A stretch of DNA of 64,000 nt from a virus (taxonomy: Duplodnaviria; Caudoviricetes). Below, one piece after another: positions 1,993 through 29,404 of this stretch (the first letter of the stretch is position 1; each line of letters begins with the position of its first letter). The DNA lies in IMG/VR virus record IMGVR_UViG_3300042294_003246; one strand, written 5' to 3'. The translations under genes and the position numbers were made by a program. The notes beneath the pieces were generated by a model. That model saw nothing but the letters and a program-made list of their open reading frames with translations. It was not told the origin of the DNA and did no database searches.

Positions 1993-4900
1993 ATGAAGAA
2001 TTTATTATTATCGATTTTTGTTTTTATTACAAGTTTTGTTTTTTCACAATCTTGCACACATACGATCAGACTGACTGATACATTTGGTGATGGTTGGAAT
2101 GGAGGTGCGGTTTCTGTATCGGTAAACGGAGTGACTGTATTGAGTAATATAACATTTACTTCAGGATTTGGCCCTGTCAATTTCAATTTTACGGCAGCAA
2201 CTGGTGCTACAATTAGAGTTTGGAGAACTTTAGCGGGAAGTTGGCCAAGTGAAATGAGGGTTCAAATAGTAAACAACACAGGAACAATTCTTTTAAATAC
2301 CATACAACCTGTTACGGGAACAGCAACGACGGGTGGTTATACATGTAATGCTATTTGTTTTATTGTAACTCCAGGTTGCACTAACGTTTCTTCATATGGG
2401 TCTGCAGTTGCTCCATCTACACCAACTACTGTTACAATTAGCTCTTGTAATTTTCAAAGTGAATACAGCACGGTTTCAGGTATTGTTGCTGGTCAAACAT
2501 ATCAATTTGGTTATAGTCTTGGAGGTTATATTACGGTTCATACAGGAACATATAACGGACCTATCGTTGCTTATGGAAATGCACCATTAAATTGGGCATC
2601 AAGTTATACTGGAACCGTTTATGTCCACTACAATACAAATTCAAGTTGTGGAACGACATCTTCATGTGGAACATCTACTGTGACTTGTGTTACTTGTTCC
2701 GCTCCAGCGGCCCCTGCAAATGATTTAGTTTGTAACGCAACACCAATTGTCTGTGGTCAGATGATATCAGGAACAACAGTAAATGCAACTAACAGTGGAA
2801 CGGGAGAAAATGGTATTTGTGGTATTTCACAAACAATGCCAGGTGTTTGGTATAGAGTTACAGGTAATGGTCAAATAATGACCGCTCATTTATGTAATAC
2901 TGCTTGGGATAGTAAAATATCTGTTTTTAGTGGAACTAGTTGTTCCGCATTAACTTGTGTAGGTGGGAATGATGATAACGGACCATTATGTGTTGGAACT
3001 TCAGCATCATATCAATGGACATCAGTTGTTGGACTTAACTATTATATTCTTGTTCATGGATATAGTTCATCAAGTGCATTTCAATTAGGATTAACATGTT
3101 CAACTCCACCACCACCAAACCCAACCTCAATTACAGCAACTTCAAATACAATATGTGTTGGTCAATCAACTACATTAACGGCAAACGGGGCAAGTGGAAC
3201 TGTATATTGGTTTACAGGAGGATGTGGTGTAGGTCAGATTGCAACAGGGAACTCAATAAGTGTAACCCCATCGACAACCACAACATATTACGCAAGAAAC
3301 TACAATGGAGTTCAGTTTAGTAACAATTGTGTGTCTACAACAGTAACGGTAAATAACAATCCGGTCGTATCAACTTCTGCAAGTTTAAGCACAATTTGTC
3401 AGGGTTCATCAACACAACTAAATTCATCTGTTACGGGAGTGTCATCTCCAGGTTCTCTTGCAGTTACAATAACAGGGGGATTATTAGATGAAACAAGTTG
3501 GACTCTAACAAATAATCTTGGAGTTATAATTGGTTCAGGAGGTCCTTATTTCACATCACCTAACGTCACAAATATTGCTTCTTCTGCTAATGGTCCTTAT
3601 GTTTTTTATATTGAAACTATGGGAAGCTGGAATGATAATGTCCCAACCTTTACTATAACTTGTAATGGGTCTACAATACTTTCAGGCTCAATTGGAGGGG
3701 GTTCACAAAATAACTATTGGGTATCAAGTTGCACAACAGCTCCGGTTGTAAATTATATTTGGTCACCATCAACAGGGTTGTCAAACCCAAATATACAAAA
3801 TCCGATAGCAAACCCATCAACTACAACAACCTATACTGTTACTGCAACTTCTAATGGTTGTAGTGGAACTTCAAGTAGAACAATAACCGTAAATCCATTA
3901 CCGAATGTAAGTGCAGGGTCTAATCAAACTGTTTGTTCAGGAACTCAAGTAACACTTAATGGTTCTGGAGCATCAACATACTCTTGGAATAACAGTGTGA
4001 CTAATGGAGTGGCTTTTACACCAACATCAACGCAAACTTATACGGTTACAGGCACAAACGCAAATGGATGTTCTAATACCTCAAGCACTACCGTCACTGT
4101 TCTATCCAATCCTTTGGCAAGCGCAGGAGGGTCTAATAATGGAACATCAACTTGTGGTATAAATCAAGTAACTTTGGGGGCTAACACACCACAAGCGGGT
4201 GAAACAGGAACATGGTCAGTTGTAAGTGGTGTTGGAGGAAGTTTTTCAAATATAAATTCACCCACATCTACGTTTATTGGAAACTATGGCTCAACATATA
4301 CTCTTCAATGGACTGTCTCAAACGGAAATTGTTCTACACCCAATAATATGTTAGTTACATTCAATCAACCAAATGCTTCGTCTTTAGGAGGTGCAATTGG
4401 AACAAACGACTTTTTATGGGGAGGGCTCACTTCTGTTGATTGGTCAACTTCAACAAACTGGTATCAAAAACAAGCTGCAGGACATTTCATTAGAATGTCA
4501 GGAGTTTCACTTCCAACAATAGCAAGTCAGGTTTTTACTTTGGACCAAGTAAATGGCGGAATTTGTATTGGAAACACAACACCAACTTTAAGTGTGAATG
4601 GAGATGCTTATGACGTTTTTATAAATTCAGGAATTACTCTTAATTTAACAAACGACAGTTTGAAAATATCACATGATATCGTAAATAATGGGACATTGAT
4701 CGCAAATACTGGAACTATAAATTTTGTTGGAAATCAAAACTCATCTTTCAATGGAAACGGAACATCACAATTATTTAACATGAAAGTTAATAAATCACAA
4801 GGGGCAACACTAACACTTGGTAACCATGTGAATGTTACTGGTAACTTAAATATGATTCAAGGAAATATTTTTACCTCAAACAACTCCTTATTAACACTAG

Positions 4901-23564: not shown

Positions 23565-23658
23565 TGCTAACGTTGAAGCATTTGTGTCAGGCGGGCATAG
23601 ATGCAACTTAATATTAACCGCAAGCTGTCCGCCCGCTTGCACAAATGCAGTGTTAGCT
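23565..23658 (+). other. attC site 1
   Basis: TGCTAAC...GCATTTGTGTCAGGCGGGC / GCCCGCTTGCACAAATGC...GTTAGCT. Confidence 0.85.
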
Positions 23659-23669
23659 GCCGTTTAATT

Positions 23670-23876
23670 ATGGAAAGAACAATTAGAACATTAAAAGAAA
23701 TGCGTGAAAAGGCTGAAAGGTCTTTTATTGAAAACTCTATCATTGTCCACAGGGCAAGTTTGGACAGTCCAATACCCGATACAAAGTCGGATTTGGAAAT
23801 GATTATTGAGTTGAACCAAGCAATATCAATTTTGCAAAATGCTACTATGGCGAAGTCTGTCGTAAATGGCAGCTAA
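23670..23876 (+). CDS. Cassette 1 ORF (hypothetical)
   Basis: ATG 23670; TAA lies in the R'' box. Confidence 0.7.
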   Translation: MERTIRTLKEMREKAERSFIENSIIVHRASLDSPIPDTKSDLEMIIELNQAISILQNATMAKSVVNGS

Positions 23877-24001
23877 CGAAAAAGGCTTTGTGCAGGTGGG
23901 GATTTGGAACACGAAAGTTTCAAATCAGTACAAAAGCCTATTAGAATTACTGCTGTTTAATTTAGCAATTCAGCCCCACTTGCACAAAACCGATGTTACC
24001 T
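23871..24001 (+). other. attC site 2
   Basis: AGCTAAC...TTTGTGCAGGTGGGG / CCCCACTTGCACAAA...GTTACCT. Confidence 0.85.
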
Positions 24002-24058
24002 GCCGTTTTTTGTCGGTAACTCACAGATTTGATTTATAAACAATTAAAATAAAGTAAA

Positions 24059-24418
24059 ATGGAAAATTTAAAAGTAGTAAAAATTGATTCAGATTCATTA
24101 GAATTTGATAATGGAATGATTTTATTTTCAGACCACGACCAACAATGCTGTGAGCATCACTATTTGTCTTTGTCAGATTTGACATTGGATGATTTTAAAG
24201 GATTGGAATTTGATTTGTCAAATGATGATTTCTTTGAAAGAATAGAAGATTATGGAATAGCCTTAAAGCCTAAAAATGGACATCCTGTTAGAATACCTGG
24301 TTATGGCTCAAACAACGGCTACTATTCATCAAATCTTGCTTTGATTATAACTAATACTGATGGTCGTGGTGTATTCAAGCAATATGATATTACTGAATGT
24401 CAAGAATGGAACGATTAG
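24059..24418 (+). CDS. Cassette 2 ORF (conserved phage hypothetical)
   Basis: HDQQCCE...GYGSNNGYYS motif. Confidence 0.75.
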   Translation: MENLKVVKIDSDSLEFDNGMILFSDHDQQCCEHHYLSLSDLTLDDFKGLEFDLSNDDFFERIEDYGIALKPKNGHPVRIPGYGSNNGYYSSNLALIITNTDGRGVFKQYDITECQEWND

Positions 24419-24437
24419 CGGTCTGTCTTAAAATGGC

Positions 24438-24569
24438 AGGTAACGGTACTTGTGTAAATTTCAGTGCCGTAAAATTAGTATAAACTTTAAATTAAAAATA
24501 AAATGAAAAATCAAGTAGAAAATTATCAACAAAGCACTGCACAGGCATTGAATTTACACAATGTTAGCA
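24438..24569 (+). other. attC site 3 (contains start codon of next ORF)
   Basis: AGGTAAC...TTGTGTAAATTTCAGTGCC / GGCATTGAATTTACACAA...GTTAGCA. Confidence 0.85.
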
Positions 24570-24736
24570 GTAGTGCCAAAGGTGGACTTCGTAAAATTAA
24601 AGATGCAGAGCAACCTTGCCTACATCCTGACCATAACCCACCGATGCACATTTATTTAACAGCAGGAACTTATGAATATACCTGCCCTTCTTGTGGCAAG
24701 GTTACGACATTTACAGTACCATTGATTACGTTTTGA
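24503..24736 (+). CDS. Cassette 3 ORF (small CxxC protein), starts inside attC3
   Basis: CLHPDHNPP...CPSCG. Confidence 0.7.
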   Translation: MKNQVENYQQSTAQALNLHNVSSSAKGGLRKIKDAEQPCLHPDHNPPMHIYLTAGTYEYTCPSCGKVTTFTVPLITF

Positions 24737-24745
24737 TGGCATTAC

Positions 24746-24830
24746 TGCTAACGGTTTCAAATATGAGAAGTAAATTTTACCTATAAAAATTTGGAAAATC
24801 AAAATTTATTTCTTATATTTGTTGTTATAA
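24746..24830 (+). other. attC site 4
   Basis: TGCTAAC...CAAATATGAGAAGTAAATTTT / AAAATTTATTTCTTATATTTG...GTTATAA. Confidence 0.85.
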
Positions 24831-24870
24831 GTATGTATTATTTTTGTTTTACCTTATAAAAAAATTAAAT

Positions 24871-25146
24871 ATGGAAAATTATATTATTAAAACCCCTGAA
24901 ATAGAGTTTAATAAAGAAGATGTATCAGATTATAAGTTCTTAGGTACATTTAAAGATGTTGATAGTGGAATACCTAAAGTAATTGTATCAAAAATAGAAG
25001 ATACATTAAAAAATTTAGATTCTAATTTGAAAGTCACACCAATGATGGTTGACCCAGAAACTTTAGATATTGTATTCGGTATATTAGAAACAAATGAAGA
25101 AAGTGTTAAGTTAAAATATCATATAAAAATCACAAAACAAAAATAA
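24871..25146 (+). CDS. Cassette 4 ORF (hypothetical)
   Basis: ATG 24871. Confidence 0.65.
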   Translation: MENYIIKTPEIEFNKEDVSDYKFLGTFKDVDSGIPKVIVSKIEDTLKNLDSNLKVTPMMVDPETLDIVFGILETNEESVKLKYHIKITKQK

Positions 25147-25152
25147 TATTAC

Positions 25153-25273
25153 TTATAACGGTTGCAAATATAAGCAGTTATTAACGAAACTTAATTAAAA
25201 GAACAAAATTAAATATTAACCAACAACATTTATTTGGAAGTAATGAAATAATTGCTTATATTTGTTGTTATAA
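25153..25273 (+). other. attC site 5
   Basis: TTATAAC...CAAATATAAGCAGTTATT / AATAATTGCTTATATTTG...GTTATAA. Confidence 0.85.
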
Positions 25274-25285
25274 AACGTTATTTAT

Positions 25286-25486
25286 ATGGAAATAAAATTT
25301 TATTGGAACGGAAGTTTTGCTGGTACTAATCACAGTATGACTATAAATAAAAAAGAGATTAGATTAGGTGGAGTTGTTTCAAACGAAGATGAAGCAAAAC
25401 TGGAAGCAATTGAAATACTCAAAAGAGATTATAATATTGACTACAATGTTGATGAAATAAAATTTGAGTGGGGTGGTCGTTTATAA
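25286..25486 (+). CDS. Cassette 5 ORF (hypothetical)
   Basis: ORF fills cassette. Confidence 0.65.
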   Translation: MEIKFYWNGSFAGTNHSMTINKKEIRLGGVVSNEDEAKLEAIEILKRDYNIDYNVDEIKFEWGGRL

Positions 25487-25490
25487 TGTT

Positions 25491-25622
25491 TTATAACGGT
25501 TGAGTATAACCGAAGGTGGGGATTAAAAGTGCTAAACCCAGACTTACCTACAAAAGTAAATTAGAAGCACAATAACTGATTTTGGGAACTACCGCCCCAC
25601 TTTTGGTTATACTTTGTTAGCG
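25491..25622 (+). other. attC site 6
   Basis: TTATAAC...GTATAACCGAAGGTGGGG / CCCCACTTTTGGTTATAC...GTTAGCG. Confidence 0.85.
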
Positions 25623-25642
25623 GTATGTAAAATTTACGTATT

Positions 25643-25828
25643 ATGAAAGAAATAGAATTGTTAATCAGAAGAGAAAATGCTTTATCTAAGCAAAATTTGT
25701 TATACCAATTATTAGGTAAATTTGGTGATGATTTACCTAAACAGATACAAGATGCTGTAAGATTGATGGCAGAAGAAGAAGGTAGAGAGTATAACAAATT
25801 AGGTACTAAGGTTGCGGAACGGTTGTAG
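25643..25828 (+). CDS. Cassette 6 ORF (hypothetical)
   Basis: ORF fills cassette. Confidence 0.65.
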   Translation: MKEIELLIRRENALSKQNLLYQLLGKFGDDLPKQIQDAVRLMAEEEGREYNKLGTKVAERL

Positions 25829-25841
25829 TAAATTTTATTAC

Positions 25842-25924
25842 CGCTAACGTTTTGCGGCTTTGTGTCAGGCTGCGAAGCGTTGGCATTGAGCGGTCGGGCA
25901 GCTTGCACAAAACCGCTGTTATAC
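25842..25924 (+). other. attC site 7
   Basis: CGCTAAC...TTTGTGTCAGGCTGC / GCAGCTTGCACAAA...GTTATAC. Confidence 0.85.
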
Positions 25925-25960
25925 GCTGGCACGGTTAATTAACAACAAAATTTAATTGAA

Positions 25961-26338
25961 ATGAATATAGATGACTTATTTAAAATCGAACCACAAGAGC
26001 CATACAAGATGAGCCAAAAAGAGTTCGTTGAAAAAACAAAATCTGTTTTAGAAAAAATCTACAATGCTTATTCAAAAGGATGGCAAAGTAGGGTTTTGAG
26101 AGATGGAGAACACCCCGAAGAAAGTGTATGTGATAAATGCACTGGTTGTGGTGTTTTCTTGGAAAATGGAGAAGAAAGAGATTGTGTTCAAGATAGAGAA
26201 CAAGGAGATTGTTTTCACAGATTTTGTGATTACGAACAGGTAGGAATGGATTTAGAAACTCATCTTGCAGATATATCCGATTTACTTTCGGTAGATGAAA
26301 TTGTCAATACGGAGCAGAATGGTAGTGCTTGCGTATAA
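25961..26338 (+). CDS. Cassette 7 ORF (Cys-rich hypothetical)
   Basis: TAA in R'' box. Confidence 0.7.
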   Translation: MNIDDLFKIEPQEPYKMSQKEFVEKTKSVLEKIYNAYSKGWQSRVLRDGEHPEESVCDKCTGCGVFLENGEERDCVQDREQGDCFHRFCDYEQVGMDLETHLADISDLLSVDEIVNTEQNGSACV

Positions 26339-26386
26339 CGTCCGATGATAAACAATCGTTTTAATGTTGTTTATCATTTGTTATGT
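26333..26386 (+). other. attC site 8 (short type)
   Basis: GTATAACGTCCGATGATAAACAATCGTTTTAATGTTGTTTATCATTTGTTATGT. Confidence 0.85.
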
Positions 26387-26495
26387 GTAGTAATTTTGTG
26401 GGTGGAAATTCTTAATTTGAACTATTTATATATAAAATCTCAGATATATTCAGTTCTGAGATTTTATATATAAACTTAAAATAAAAGACAGAACT

Positions 26496-26768
26496 ATGAA
26501 AGAGAATAGAATTAAGAGATTTAAAAACTTCTTAAAAGAAGGAAAATCATATTTAGATGGTTCTGGTGAAAGAGGATTTTCACCGATGGAAATCAAACAA
26601 CTAAATATAGGTGATAAAATAACTTTTCACTTTAATAAATCTTTAATGGACGGTGTTATAACAGATAAAGAAGAACTTCAAAACGGAGACACTTTGTTTA
26701 GTATAGAAACAGAAAAAGGAGTATTGAAGAAAAGTCATAGAAATTTAGAAGTTTATAAAATTTATTAG
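26496..26768 (+). CDS. Cassette 8 ORF (hypothetical, IKRFKNFLKE leader)
   Basis: ORF preceded by TATTTAT motif. Confidence 0.7.
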   Translation: MKENRIKRFKNFLKEGKSYLDGSGERGFSPMEIKQLNIGDKITFHFNKSLMDGVITDKEELQNGDTLFSIETEKGVLKKSHRNLEVYKIY

Positions 26769-26790
26769 TAGGTGGGTAAAAAATTATTAC

Positions 26791-26924
26791 ACATAACGGT
26801 TGGGCGGTTGGCGTTCGTTGCCGACTTTGGAACACGAAACTTTAATTTAAAAACAAAATTTGATATGGAAAACAACACTTCAATTAACCACGAAAACGGC
26901 AATGACGCTAACCGCTTGTTAGCG
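26791..26924 (+). other. attC site 9 (contains start codon of next ORF)
   Basis: ACATAAC...GCGGTTGGCGTTCGTTGCCG / CGGCAATGACGCTAACCGC...GTTAGCG. Confidence 0.85.
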
Positions 26925-27146
26925 GCTGGTGCGGATTTAATCGGAAAGTTTTACGAAATGTTAAATCTTGATGATTCCGTAATGCACCGTTTTAAAATAA
27001 AGCATGTACGCACAGAAACGACTCCTGCTATTGACCATTCCGATGGCAGTCATTCACCAAGCAAAACACATGTTTTGGTTTCGGCAGAAGGTTCAGGGTG
27101 GTTTCGTTTGTATGGCGGTAAAACTGATAGAGTGGTGGAGGAGTAG
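26865..27146 (+). CDS. Cassette 9 ORF, starts inside attC9
   Basis: ATG 26865, MENNTSINHENGNDANRLLAAG. Confidence 0.65.
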   Translation: MENNTSINHENGNDANRLLAAGADLIGKFYEMLNLDDSVMHRFKIKHVRTETTPAIDHSDGSHSPSKTHVLVSAEGSGWFRLYGGKTDRVVEE

Positions 27147-27153
27147 CACTTGC

Positions 27154-27207
27154 CGCTAACGTCCGATGATAAACAATCGTTTTAATGTTGTTTATCATTT
27201 GTTATAA
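27154..27207 (+). other. attC site 10 (short type)
   Basis: Same core as attC8. Confidence 0.85.
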
Positions 27208-27224
27208 GTTGTTTTTTATTATAT

Positions 27225-27641
27225 TTGAATATGGTAGATTTAATAGTAAAGGAAATTGATGACTTTTATATGAATGAATTCAATCTTTTAAAAGAAGAAG
27301 TTCAAAAAAACATAAAAGTTGAGATTATAGATAGTTCAAAATTTGGGGATATAGGTGGGAGATTTAATTTTTTGAAACAGATAATATATGTAAATTCAGA
27401 ACAATCTAATGAGAATATGTTTCTAACACTTCTACATGAATATGGACATTTTCTAACTTTTAGAGATTATATCTATGTATATAATGTTTGTCCTTACGAA
27501 TATGGTAGAAATGTATTAAAACGAGAATTAGGTGCGTATTATCATGGGTGGAAATTCATAAAATCTAACTCAATTGGAGTTTCAAAAAATAAATGGAGAG
27601 AACACCATATTCAAATATTAAAAGATTATGAGATATTATGA
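27225..27641 (+). CDS. Cassette 10 ORF, HExxH metallopeptidase-like (ImmA/IrrE-like)
   Basis: LTLLHEYGH and downstream E..AY motif. Confidence 0.65.
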   Translation: MNMVDLIVKEIDDFYMNEFNLLKEEVQKNIKVEIIDSSKFGDIGGRFNFLKQIIYVNSEQSNENMFLTLLHEYGHFLTFRDYIYVYNVCPYEYGRNVLKRELGAYYHGWKFIKSNSIGVSKNKWREHHIQILKDYEIL

Positions 27642-27648
27642 AAATAAC

Positions 27649-27722
27649 TTATAACGTTTTGCACATACACGCTGTGAGCGTTGTATTGAGGGCAGGGAAA
27701 TAGCGTGTATGTGCTGTTATAG
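27649..27722 (+). other. attC site 11
   Basis: TTATAAC...GCACATACACGCT / AGCGTGTATGTGC...GTTATAG. Confidence 0.85.
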
Positions 27723-27774
27723 GCTGTATTTAAAAGTTTTTAGCGAAGGAATTAACAATTAAAATAAACATAAA

Positions 27775-28332
27775 ATGAAAAAAGTAAAAGAAGCATACGA
27801 TGAAATTTTAAAAGCATTACATAAACACAGAGAAATTTGCGTTTTTGATGTAAGTGAATTGGAAAGAAAAGCCAAAACACATTTATTTGGACTTGAACTG
27901 AAAGAAGTTTACGGGCTAAATATTGACTCTAAACAAATTAAAAATATGGATTGGGTTAGGTTTGGAGAATATAGGGCGATTGGGATGTGGGGCGAAAAAC
28001 ACAGAAGAACTATAATTTGGAGCGTTGATGGAATACAGCCCGAAGATGAAATGTTATTACAAATATGCTTTCCAACTGGTGCATACATTTTTGGAGAAGA
28101 TTATGCCGTAAATTTCTTTCAAAAGTTTTGGCTTGAATTAAAATCATTTACGCCTGATTACATAGACGAAGTAAATCTCGGATTATATTGGAAATTAGAA
28201 AACGCAAAAGATGTTTTTAACTCGTTTGATTTGCTTTTAAAAAAGTACTACGAACTTAATAAAGAAGATGCGAAACAAAGGAGAATTGAAAAGATGAAAA
28301 AAGAACTTGAGCAACTTGAAAACTCTAAATAG
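27775..28332 (+). CDS. Cassette 11 ORF (hypothetical)
   Basis: 185-aa ORF. Confidence 0.75.
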   Translation: MKKVKEAYDEILKALHKHREICVFDVSELERKAKTHLFGLELKEVYGLNIDSKQIKNMDWVRFGEYRAIGMWGEKHRRTIIWSVDGIQPEDEMLLQICFPTGAYIFGEDYAVNFFQKFWLELKSFTPDYIDEVNLGLYWKLENAKDVFNSFDLLLKKYYELNKEDAKQRRIEKMKKELEQLENSK

Positions 28333-28362
28333 TGCAATGGCAAAAAAACTTTTAAATATTGC

Positions 28363-28416
28363 CTATAACGTCTGATGATAAACAATCGTTTTAATGTTGT
28401 TTATCATTTGTTATAT
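28363..28416 (+). other. attC site 12 (short type)
   Basis: Same core as attC8/10 with one C>T change. Confidence 0.85.
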
Positions 28417-28492
28417 TCAGTTATTTTTTCAATTATTTCAAAAAACCGTTTTTTTTTTATTAATATATAGATTATAAAAAAAAATTAAAACT

Positions 28493-28825
28493 ATGAGAAA
28501 ATTAAAATTTTTAAAAACATTTGAATCTCTTTTGGAAGATGATTTCTCTAAAGAAAATATATTGGACAATATTTTAAGTAAAATAGAGAAAGAATTTATG
28601 AATTCACCTATTAAATTTACAGAAATACTTAAAAGAGGAGATAATAGTATCTACATTAAATATGAAATTGACTGGGAGATGCCAGAGACTATGGAAGATT
28701 GGTGGGATTATGAGGAATTTATAGAAAAACATTTAAATAAATTATCAGATAATTTGAATATATTTGAATATAATTATGATTTAACTAGTATTAGAATATA
28801 TCCCCGTAAAAATAAAAATAATTGA
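28493..28825 (+). CDS. Cassette 12 ORF (hypothetical, LKTFESLLE leader)
   Basis: ORF fills cassette. Confidence 0.7.
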   Translation: MRKLKFLKTFESLLEDDFSKENILDNILSKIEKEFMNSPIKFTEILKRGDNSIYIKYEIDWEMPETMEDWWDYEEFIEKHLNKLSDNLNIFEYNYDLTSIRIYPRKNKNN

Positions 28826-28955
28826 ATATAACGGTCGCAGATATGCCCAGTTTGGGATTAAATAGTATAAACTTTAAATTAATATAAAATGAACAAAGAA
28901 GAACAAAATTTGAATAACGCAGAGAACCCCAAATTGGATATATCTGATGTTAGCG
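28826..28955 (+). other. attC site 13 (contains start codon of next ORF)
   Basis: ATATAAC...CAGATATGCCCAGTTTGGG / CCCAAATTGGATATATCTG...GTTAGCG. Confidence 0.85.
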
Positions 28956-29125
28956 GTAGTTATTTATGGATTCCTGTAACGGAGCGACTACCTGAAACCG
29001 AAGATTACTATGCAGTTAGATTTGAAAACGGCATTGAAGATGAAAAACCTTTTAGGATTAGACCAAAGAAAAATATCTTCGGTTTTATGACTATGGAGAA
29101 AGTTACACATTGGGCGGTTCTATAA
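28889..29125 (+). CDS. Cassette 13 ORF, DUF551-like, starts inside attC13
   Basis: WIPVTERLPE...VTHWA. Confidence 0.7.
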   Translation: MNKEEQNLNNAENPKLDISDVSGSYLWIPVTERLPETEDYYAVRFENGIEDEKPFRIRPKKNIFGFMTMEKVTHWAVL

Positions 29126-29129
29126 TTAC

Positions 29130-29184
29130 CGCTAACGTTTTGCGTGTATAAAATCGTTTTAATGTTTTATACACGCTGTTAGCA
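29130..29184 (+). other. attC site 14 (terminal)
   Basis: CGCTAAC...GCGTGTATAAAA / TTTTATACACGC...GTTAGCA. Confidence 0.85.
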
Positions 29185-29404
29185 GTAGTACGGTAATTAA
29201 CCACAAATGCTCATTCGGAGAACTGAACCTTTTTCTTTTCTTTTTTGTGGGTTGGACAAAATAAATTTGAAAAATTTAAAAATAAATAATATGAAATTAG
29301 AAACAATTGAAAATGGAGTTAAAGATGGGATTTGATAAAAAAATATTAGAAAATGATGGGTTGTTGGATGTTGAATTAGATAATGGGGTTTACAAATATA
29401 GTCT

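Follow-up and report, generated by a model that had tools for sequence, protein, structure and literature searches.

The window analysed here is a stretch of 64,000 nucleotides from a virus of the class Caudoviricetes (IMG/VR record IMGVR_UViG_3300042294_003246). The region from 23565 to 29184 has 14 imperfect hairpins of 54-134 nt with small + strand open reading frames (ORFs) in between, which amounts to 14 sites in 5.6 kb. The hairpins resemble the attC sites of integrons and are numbered attC1 to attC14 along the + strand. Their folds follow one plan: a left box nnnTAAC (R'') followed by G, an unpaired stretch of 3-5 nt in the left arm, a long stem, a variable loop and a right box GTTAnnn (R'). 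They were called with a constrained-fold screen; screens for ungapped arms or for energy only returned nothing, or mainly false sites in coding DNA. A first-pass annotation of this DNA had suggested that the sites supply start codons and promoters to the ORF downstream and that the polarity of the cassettes is reversed. The region is probably an inverted integron-like cassette array, in which each hairpin moves with its downstream gene.

The boxes of neighbouring hairpins are related to each other. R' of each hairpin is the reverse complement of R'' of the next at 13/13 junctions, and attC14 pairs with attC1 in a wrap-around. None of 100,000 permutations reach the observed value (maximum, 9), and the variable box bases pair within their own hairpin at only 1 of the 14 sites. 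The complementarity extends about 10 bases beyond the boxes, with 7.0/10 bases matching between neighbours against 3.9/10 between non-neighbours. Since both the boxes and their flanking bases are complementary, every inter-hairpin unit has inverted ends of about 17 nt. Such ends are a hallmark of integron cassettes, but they are symmetric and are silent on polarity. The hairpins themselves are not symmetric. The impression that left arms have more unpaired bases than right arms holds at 13-14 of the 14 sites, where a spacer of 3-5 nt right after TAACG faces 0-2 nt on the right.

The same site type is found in bacteria. A 17-mer from one of the hairpin families matches many Flavobacterium chromosomes, which have arrays of nearly identical 134-165-nt hairpins between ORFs, spread over many small contigs. 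Hairpins of this type are in the arrays of F. cauense, F. enshiense and F. sp. SM15. In the latter two genomes the order is a recombinase (356 aa, upstream, on the ORF strand), an attI-like site, the first ORF and the first hairpin. The attI-like sequence TGCGTATATAyAkGAG|TTAGCn is conserved and its nnn matches the first hairpin (L255, 2440-2480; L256, 1085-1050 on the minus strand). This layout is that of classical integrons, in which crossover would take place at the GTTA box on the 3' side of the hairpin. Among viruses, the site type also occurs in cultured Baltic Flavobacterium siphophages, in a region of early genes and methyltransferases, in Winogradskyella and Cellulophaga phages, in Polaribacter phage P12002L and in at least 90 IMG/VR contigs.

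The phage and bacterial arrays differ in the strand of their genes. ORF strand was scored relative to the strand on which the hairpin reads 5'-TAACG-spacer. For 94 viral hairpins the downstream ORFs are on the same strand in 70 cases and on the opposite strand in 0, and the upstream ORFs in 56 and 2. For 69 hairpins from bacteria or metagenome-assembled genomes (MAGs) the counts are 13 same and 43 opposite downstream, and 13 and 42 upstream. Among decided cases, the downstream ORF is thus on the same strand at 70/70 viral hairpins and on the opposite strand at 43/56 bacterial or MAG hairpins. The large spacer follows the same division: relative to the ORFs it is on the 3' arm, beside the crossover box, in 7/7 bacterial loci (8 vs 2 nt), whereas the window and five phage loci have it on the 5' arm. 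The contrast in strand and spacer therefore indicates that the phage genes are inverted with respect to the site and that, on their coding strand, the crossover box comes at the hairpin's 5' end. What the first-pass annotation had called the left box is, in classical nomenclature, the R' box read on the bottom strand. In the bacterial arrays the sites follow their genes and would cross over at G|TTA of the spacer-proximal box, beside an Xer/IntI-like recombinase and an attI-like site. In the phages, where the genes lie on the other strand, the crossover box would be nnnTAA|C at the 5' end of the hairpin. The mobile unit of the phage arrays would then consist of the hairpin body, the R' box, the gene and the next nnnTAA.

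Rearrangements in related phages have this unit. The set examined has 11 cultured Flavobacterium siphophage genomes with 107 hairpins, whose bodies are joined to upstream and downstream flanks in 45 distinct combinations. A constant body and downstream flank is seen with 11 extra upstream flanks, while the opposite pattern is seen once. Nine upstream flanks precede more than one body, three downstream flanks follow more than one body, and 33/44 unique junctions obey the box-complementarity rule. For the hairpin b1, which is ahead of a methyltransferase, BLAST identity begins exactly at TAAC in five upstream contexts. The genomes of lillamy9-1 and lillamy9-3 (both 38,268 bp) differ by the translocation of a 444-nt block, a body with its ORF, which lies between two cassettes in one genome and, in the other, at the TTATAAC half-site that closes the array on its downstream side. 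All three junctions overlap in (A)TAAC only. By analogy with the bacterial arrays, the event reads as an excision followed by reinsertion at the primary site, the attI-like end. The unit of recent rearrangement in these phages is therefore the body with the gene downstream of it. For the window, contig L274 (2,995 nt) has the attC7 body and 2,876 identical bases joined to 119 unrelated upstream bases; the junction falls at the variable triplet of the left box, TGC|TAAC instead of CGC|TAAC. The proposal that the body travels with the downstream gene, with the crossover near AAC, is supported by three independent lines, namely these rearrangements, the bacterial layout and the strand contrast. 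For the window itself this support comes mainly by homology.

If the body moves with the gene that follows it, the hairpin would be the 5' region of its own cassette and could carry the translation start of the gene. Three ORFs of the window have their start codons in hairpin loops, as had been noted: ORF 24503 in hairpin 3 (24438-24569, +, AGGTAAC ... GTTAGCA), ORF 26865 in hairpin 9 (26791-26924, +, ACATAAC ... GTTAGCG) and ORF 28889 in hairpin 13 (28826-28955, +, ATATAAC ... GTTAGCG). The ATG codons are 65, 74 and 63 nt into the respective hairpins. ORF 24503 (24503-24736, +) encodes a small Zn-ribbon-like protein of 77 aa, with its first 22 codons falling within hairpin 3, in the loop and the right arm. 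ORF 26865 (26865-27146, +) encodes 93 aa and ORF 28889 (28889-29125, +) encodes 78 aa. The observation that GTTAGC is read through in two frames is also correct. ORF 24503 reads AAT GTT AGC (N-V-S) and ORF 28889 reads GAT GTT AGC (D-V-S) across R', and ORF 26865 reads CGC TTG TTA GCG (R-L-L-A). Downstream of R' there is no in-frame ATG, GTG or TTG until 30 codons before the stop in ORF 24503 and about 12 codons before the stop in ORF 28889. Since neither ORF has a usable codon after R', the start must lie in the hairpin. In ORF 26865 an ATG is present 30 codons downstream, and the stretch between R' and this ATG (AGADLIGKFYE) is conserved as protein in homologues.

Starts in hairpins are not limited to these three sites. 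Many of the long hairpins, at about 125-135 nt, contain the ATG of a genuine gene. Several siphophage methyltransferases have their ATG in the hairpin and no other start, and their conserved domain begins about 5 residues past R'. In one family from the IMG/VR set the start is in the hairpin at 17/76 viral sites; in the window this is so at 3/14. These starts could be ORF-calling artefacts, in which case translation would begin after R' and the open frame of the right arm would be accidental. The leader is not conserved as protein, and one right arm is read in all three frames, as would be expected of an accidental frame. The homologues of ORF 24503 have a conserved core from GGLRKIKD with N-terminal leaders of 0-40 aa, so that some start directly at the core, and ORF 26865 has an internal ATG. 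However, ORFs 24503 and 28889 and the siphophage methyltransferases have no start codon after R', the frame is open at 17 of the 76 viral sites, and the leader is retained, with in-frame indels of 6 nt and 3 nt, in a 91% identical homologue of ORF 28889 from the uncultured phage LR756500.1. An artefact is extremely unlikely. The leaders are presumably translated.

Some leaders are found on more than one protein. Contig L263 has a hairpin 9 body that is 95% identical and an identical 21-aa leader ahead of an unrelated ORF. In Cellulophaga phage phi19:3 (gp033) a hairpin and leader related to hairpin 13 and ORF 28889 precede an unrelated protein, and contig L262 has ORF 24503 under a different hairpin and leader. 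The first-pass annotation had offered N-terminal fusions and expression switches as the alternative to reversed polarity. The fusion part of this stands, to the extent that near-identical hairpin-coded leaders are found ahead of unrelated proteins in L263, in phi19:3 and in IMG/VR cases. The fusions may stem from rare crossovers at the other box or from the first formation of the cassettes.

The same leaders could also indicate that polarity on the phage coding strand is classical. The body would then stay with the upstream gene, the crossover would be at G|TT of the right box, and the ORFs that start in hairpins would be start-less cassettes that landed behind an ATG-bearing hairpin. This would account for near-identical leaders before unrelated proteins (L263 and ORF 26865, phi19:3 gp033 and ORF 28889, and many in IMG/VR), for ORF 24503 being under a different hairpin with the same GTTAGCA box, and for one junction at which a constant upstream flank and body have differing downstream flanks. 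However, the recent events are 11 to 1 for the other box, with a clean translocation among them, and both the bacterial attI junction and the side of the spacer put the crossover box at the 5' end in phages. Sharing of hairpin families by unrelated cassettes is usual in chromosomal integrons and is uninformative on the position of the crossover. Classical polarity is very unlikely, and movement of the body with its downstream gene is preferred.

Promoters were also expected in the hairpins. The motif TATATTTG is present in attC4 (24746-24830, +, TGCTAAC ... GTTATAA) at 24814-21 and in attC5 (25153-25273, +, family D18, TTATAAC ... GTTATAA) at 25257-64, in both cases 2 nt ahead of GTTATAA, in agreement with the earlier remark that it lies just before R'. 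A pattern scan places TTTG exactly 20 nt upstream of it in both hairpins, so that TTTG-N20-TATATTTG occupies 24790-24821 and 25233-25264 of the right arms. This spacing is that of the -33/-7 promoter arrangement of Bacteroidota. A third match consists of a TTTG in hairpin 10 and TATATTTG at 27220-27227, just 3 nt before an ATG. The pattern TTTG-N18-22-TAnnTTTG is found 11 times in the window against 5.4 expected, and 3/8 of the + strand matches fall in the array. A sigma-70 promoter scan gave no excess over shuffles. Four metatranscriptome runs contain small shares (0.05-0.13) of the words of the array. The claim that the sites supply promoters is not supported, since the consensus match is confined to one hairpin family; nor is that of on/off expression switches. 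The attC4 and attC5 hairpins, besides being putative 5' regions, carry a Bacteroidota-type promoter match, and these candidate promoters may fire.

The nearest functional analogue of the array is the PeSLs (promoter-early stem-loops) of T4-type phages (Arbiol 2010, PMC2839356; Comeau 2014, PMC4122927), but these are homology-driven. PeSLs are intergenic stem-loops that immediately precede small ORFans in variable regions of large phage genomes, and move with the downstream gene as an expression module tied to gene shuffling, as the hairpins do here. They differ in that they combine a conserved sigma-70 promoter with a GC stem and are swapped by homologous recombination, whereas the sites here have variable sequences, junctions of 4-5 nt within boxes whose triplets pair, and counterparts in a recombinase-associated bacterial system. 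The array could still be a set of PeSL-like regulatory cassettes, each a terminator and promoter, shuffled by homologous recombination with no site-specific enzyme. T-runs follow several hairpins, attC4 and attC5 have the promoter consensus, no recombinase was found in the phages searched, and PeSLs are known upstream of ORFans and to form mini-circles (PMC2839356). However, terminators are not in excess (2 found vs 2.1 expected from shuffles), the promoter pattern is at 3/14 sites, the hairpin sequences differ from each other, and the junctions are confined to the boxes, where otherwise unrelated sequences share just 4-5 bases. The three variable box bases pair with the next box at all 13 junctions, and in chromosomes of the host genus the same sites neighbour a tyrosine recombinase and an attI-like site. 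A PeSL-like origin is very unlikely. Within the preferred reading, it is tentatively proposed that in Bacteroidota phages the hairpin is a portable expression head, which might terminate transcription from upstream, would hold a promoter or a translation start, and would encode an N-terminal peptide of about 20 residues. Recombination or cassette genesis could put such a head on unrelated proteins in any frame, and an Xer-like recombinase without the integron-defining domain would then build or switch genes in a site-specific manner resembling exon shuffling. This further step is possible but less likely than the cassette reading itself.

The recombinase of the Flavobacterium arrays is related to integron integrases. 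The 356-aa protein scores 219-225 bits on NF040815 (the 'XerA/integron integrase' model; cut-off 220) and about 211 bits on TIGR02249 (integron integrase; cut-off 265), with profile positions 177-238 unmatched. A shorter relative of 263-276 aa, 38-43% identical, is encoded downstream of an array and on the coding strand in 3/118 viral loci from IMG/VR (L212, 1055-1885; L168, 5941-6732; L139, 1091-1921). In L212 and L168 it lies just past a hairpin; in L139 another ORF separates it from the 17-mer, which is about 1 kb upstream. The tyrosine recombinase gp036 of phi19:3 was considered as an array enzyme and rejected. Its only match is to XerD, at 27.6 bits (E 1.7e-6) and far under the cut-off, and it does not match any integron-integrase model. 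The enzyme would instead be an Xer-like recombinase of the host or of a phage that acts on the folded coding strand, and we infer that the array of the window was built in this way.

The array shares several features with integrons. As in attC sites, the palindromes are imperfect, structure is conserved over sequence, AAC...GTT boxes are at the base, and each cassette opens with a box complementary to that of its own site. The G after AAC on the strand that is probably cleaved is also present in most attC sites (PMC2727003). The host-genus arrays have a tyrosine recombinase and an attI-like site, as integrons do, including the sedentary chromosomal 'inverted integrase' type, and in the lillamy9 phages an excised cassette appears to have been reinserted at the terminal site. 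However, none of the 14 R' boxes fit the RYYYAAC/GTTRRRY consensus (examples are GTTAGCT, GTTATAA and GTTACCT), although TAAC and GTTA are present in 14/14. The L''/L' boxes of attC sites, whose extrahelical bases on the R''-L'' arm determine strand choice (PMC2727003), are not evident, nor is a conserved single bulged G or T; the sites have one asymmetric spacer by the crossover box and then a continuous stem. The cassette ends differ in pairing over about 17 nt, and the part of the integron-integrase profile between positions 176 and 239 has no counterpart in the associated recombinase. The phage genes are all inverted, so that the site precedes the gene and is able to encode its start. The set that defines a complete integron (IntI with the integron-specific extra domain, attI and an array) was not found, and the classical layout, with the gene before attC and crossover at the 3' end of the site, is not that of the phages. 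IntegronFinder 2.0 reported a single complete integron in Bacteroidetes.

With 14 sites in 5.6 kb and no integrase found in 64 kb, the array classes as an integrase-less cluster of two or more attC sites (CALIN), which holds only if the sites are regarded as attC-like. Qi et al. 2023 (Front Microbiol; PMC9892861) describe CALINs in virulent phages, Polaribacter phage P12002L included. The clusters in that paper are likewise integrase-less, attC-like and among small genes and methyltransferase genes of Flavobacteriia phages. The site P12002L_attC1 has the hairpin type of attC8 and attC14 and is on the coding strand of methyltransferase ORFs, and its primer appears to be listed as 'bottom strand'. 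The paper differs in ascribing 'divergent directions' to mosaicism, and it describes no systematic inverted layout, hairpin-internal starts or link to Flavobacterium arrays. Under the interpretation preferred here, 23565-29184 would be an integrase-less array of 13 gene cassettes and 14 folded-DNA sites of a Bacteroidota integron-like system.

Several observations weigh against this interpretation. No tyrosine recombinase was found in the window, in 5 siphophages, in LR756500.1 and LR756504.1, or in Peternella_1. The only published test of this site type is that of P12002L_attC1 with IntI1, and among six phage sites it was the single one that IntI1 failed to recombine (PMC9892861). Seven metagenome contigs have the array at 100% identity; shuffling is thus not seen in this phage, where the array may be static. 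The L274 junction may reflect either a true variant of the array or a chimeric assembly at a shared hairpin, and the siphophage junction U8|B3, with D2 or D9 after it, is consistent with crossover at the other box. By itself, TAnnTTTG is found in the window about as often as chance predicts (128 times vs 109 expected), and the promoter matches of attC4 and attC5 are copies of one family and count as a single case. The same bodies also occur with unrelated genes on both sides, as with the 54-nt body in three copies and in L263 and L262; therefore, bodies and genes are not linked over long times. This sharing was rejected as a way to locate the crossover, since homogeneity of sites is normal in chromosomal integrons.

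The remaining hairpins are also on the + strand and were identified from their folds. Hairpin 1 (23565-23658) reads TGCTAAC ... GTTAGCT, and its nnnTAAC is the reverse complement of the GTTAnnn of attC14. Hairpin 2 (23871-24001; AGCTAAC ... GTTACCT) shares its body family with a hairpin of phage mymlan6-1. The right arm of attC5 is a copy of the right arm of attC4 (79% identical). Hairpin 6 (25491-25622; TTATAAC ... GTTAGCG) is followed by hairpin 7 (25842-25924; CGCTAAC ... GTTATAC), whose right arm and leader have 85% identity to a hairpin that precedes a methyltransferase gene in 37 Flavobacterium phage records. Hairpin 11 (27649-27722) reads TTATAAC ... GTTATAG. Hairpins 8 (26333-26386; family D13), 10 (27154-27207) and 12 (28363-28416) are of a short type and have the same 54-nt body, with unrelated genes on both sides and only the box triplets varying. 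This suggests local homogenisation, or the formation of new cassettes with a house hairpin. Hairpin 14 (29130-29184; CGCTAAC ... GTTAGCA) is of the same type as P12002L_attC1 of Qi et al. 2023.

The array region has a few other features. A perfect AT-rich inverted repeat, TTATATATAAAATCTCAGA...TCTGAGATTTTATATATAA, is at 26424-26475 between attC8 and ORF 26496. This repeat gives only a chance-level match to Rfam, and the Rfam scan gave two matches in all, both at chance level. The cassette ORF at 27231-27641 has an HExxH motif (LLHEYGHFL), as in small zinc metallopeptidases. About 85 nt right after attC14 (29177-29263, GTAGTACGG..AACCACAAATGCTCATTCGGAGAACTGAACCTTTTTCTTTTCTTTTTTG) have about 91% identity to the post-hairpin stretch of siphophage mymlan6-1 (approximately 3001-3087). 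The mymlan6-1 copy is behind a different hairpin and the genes that follow differ between the two phages. This stretch may be a separate conserved leader, a small RNA or a promoter module. One array protein is also encoded on recorded contigs of up to 298,910 bp.

In the accepted view, an integron cassette is a promoterless gene with its attC site behind it, expressed from a promoter of the platform, and the choice of attC strand serves to preserve this orientation. In a literature search, neither the inverted layout nor starts inside the sites were found described. In phages of an abundant aquatic phylum, an entire class of arrays would use an integron-type site in reverse, with each cassette bringing its own 5' region, and the recombination site itself would be able to encode the start of a protein. 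The phage arrays are linked to a chromosomal gene-capture system of Flavobacterium. Since the recombinase of this system falls under current integron-finding thresholds, both the phage and the chromosomal arrays probably escape standard tools. Tests of the system are feasible, as the Baltic Flavobacterium phages have been cultured together with their hosts. For phages that have no integrase, the arrays may be a route by which anti-restriction methylases and small early genes are retained and traded as self-expressing units.

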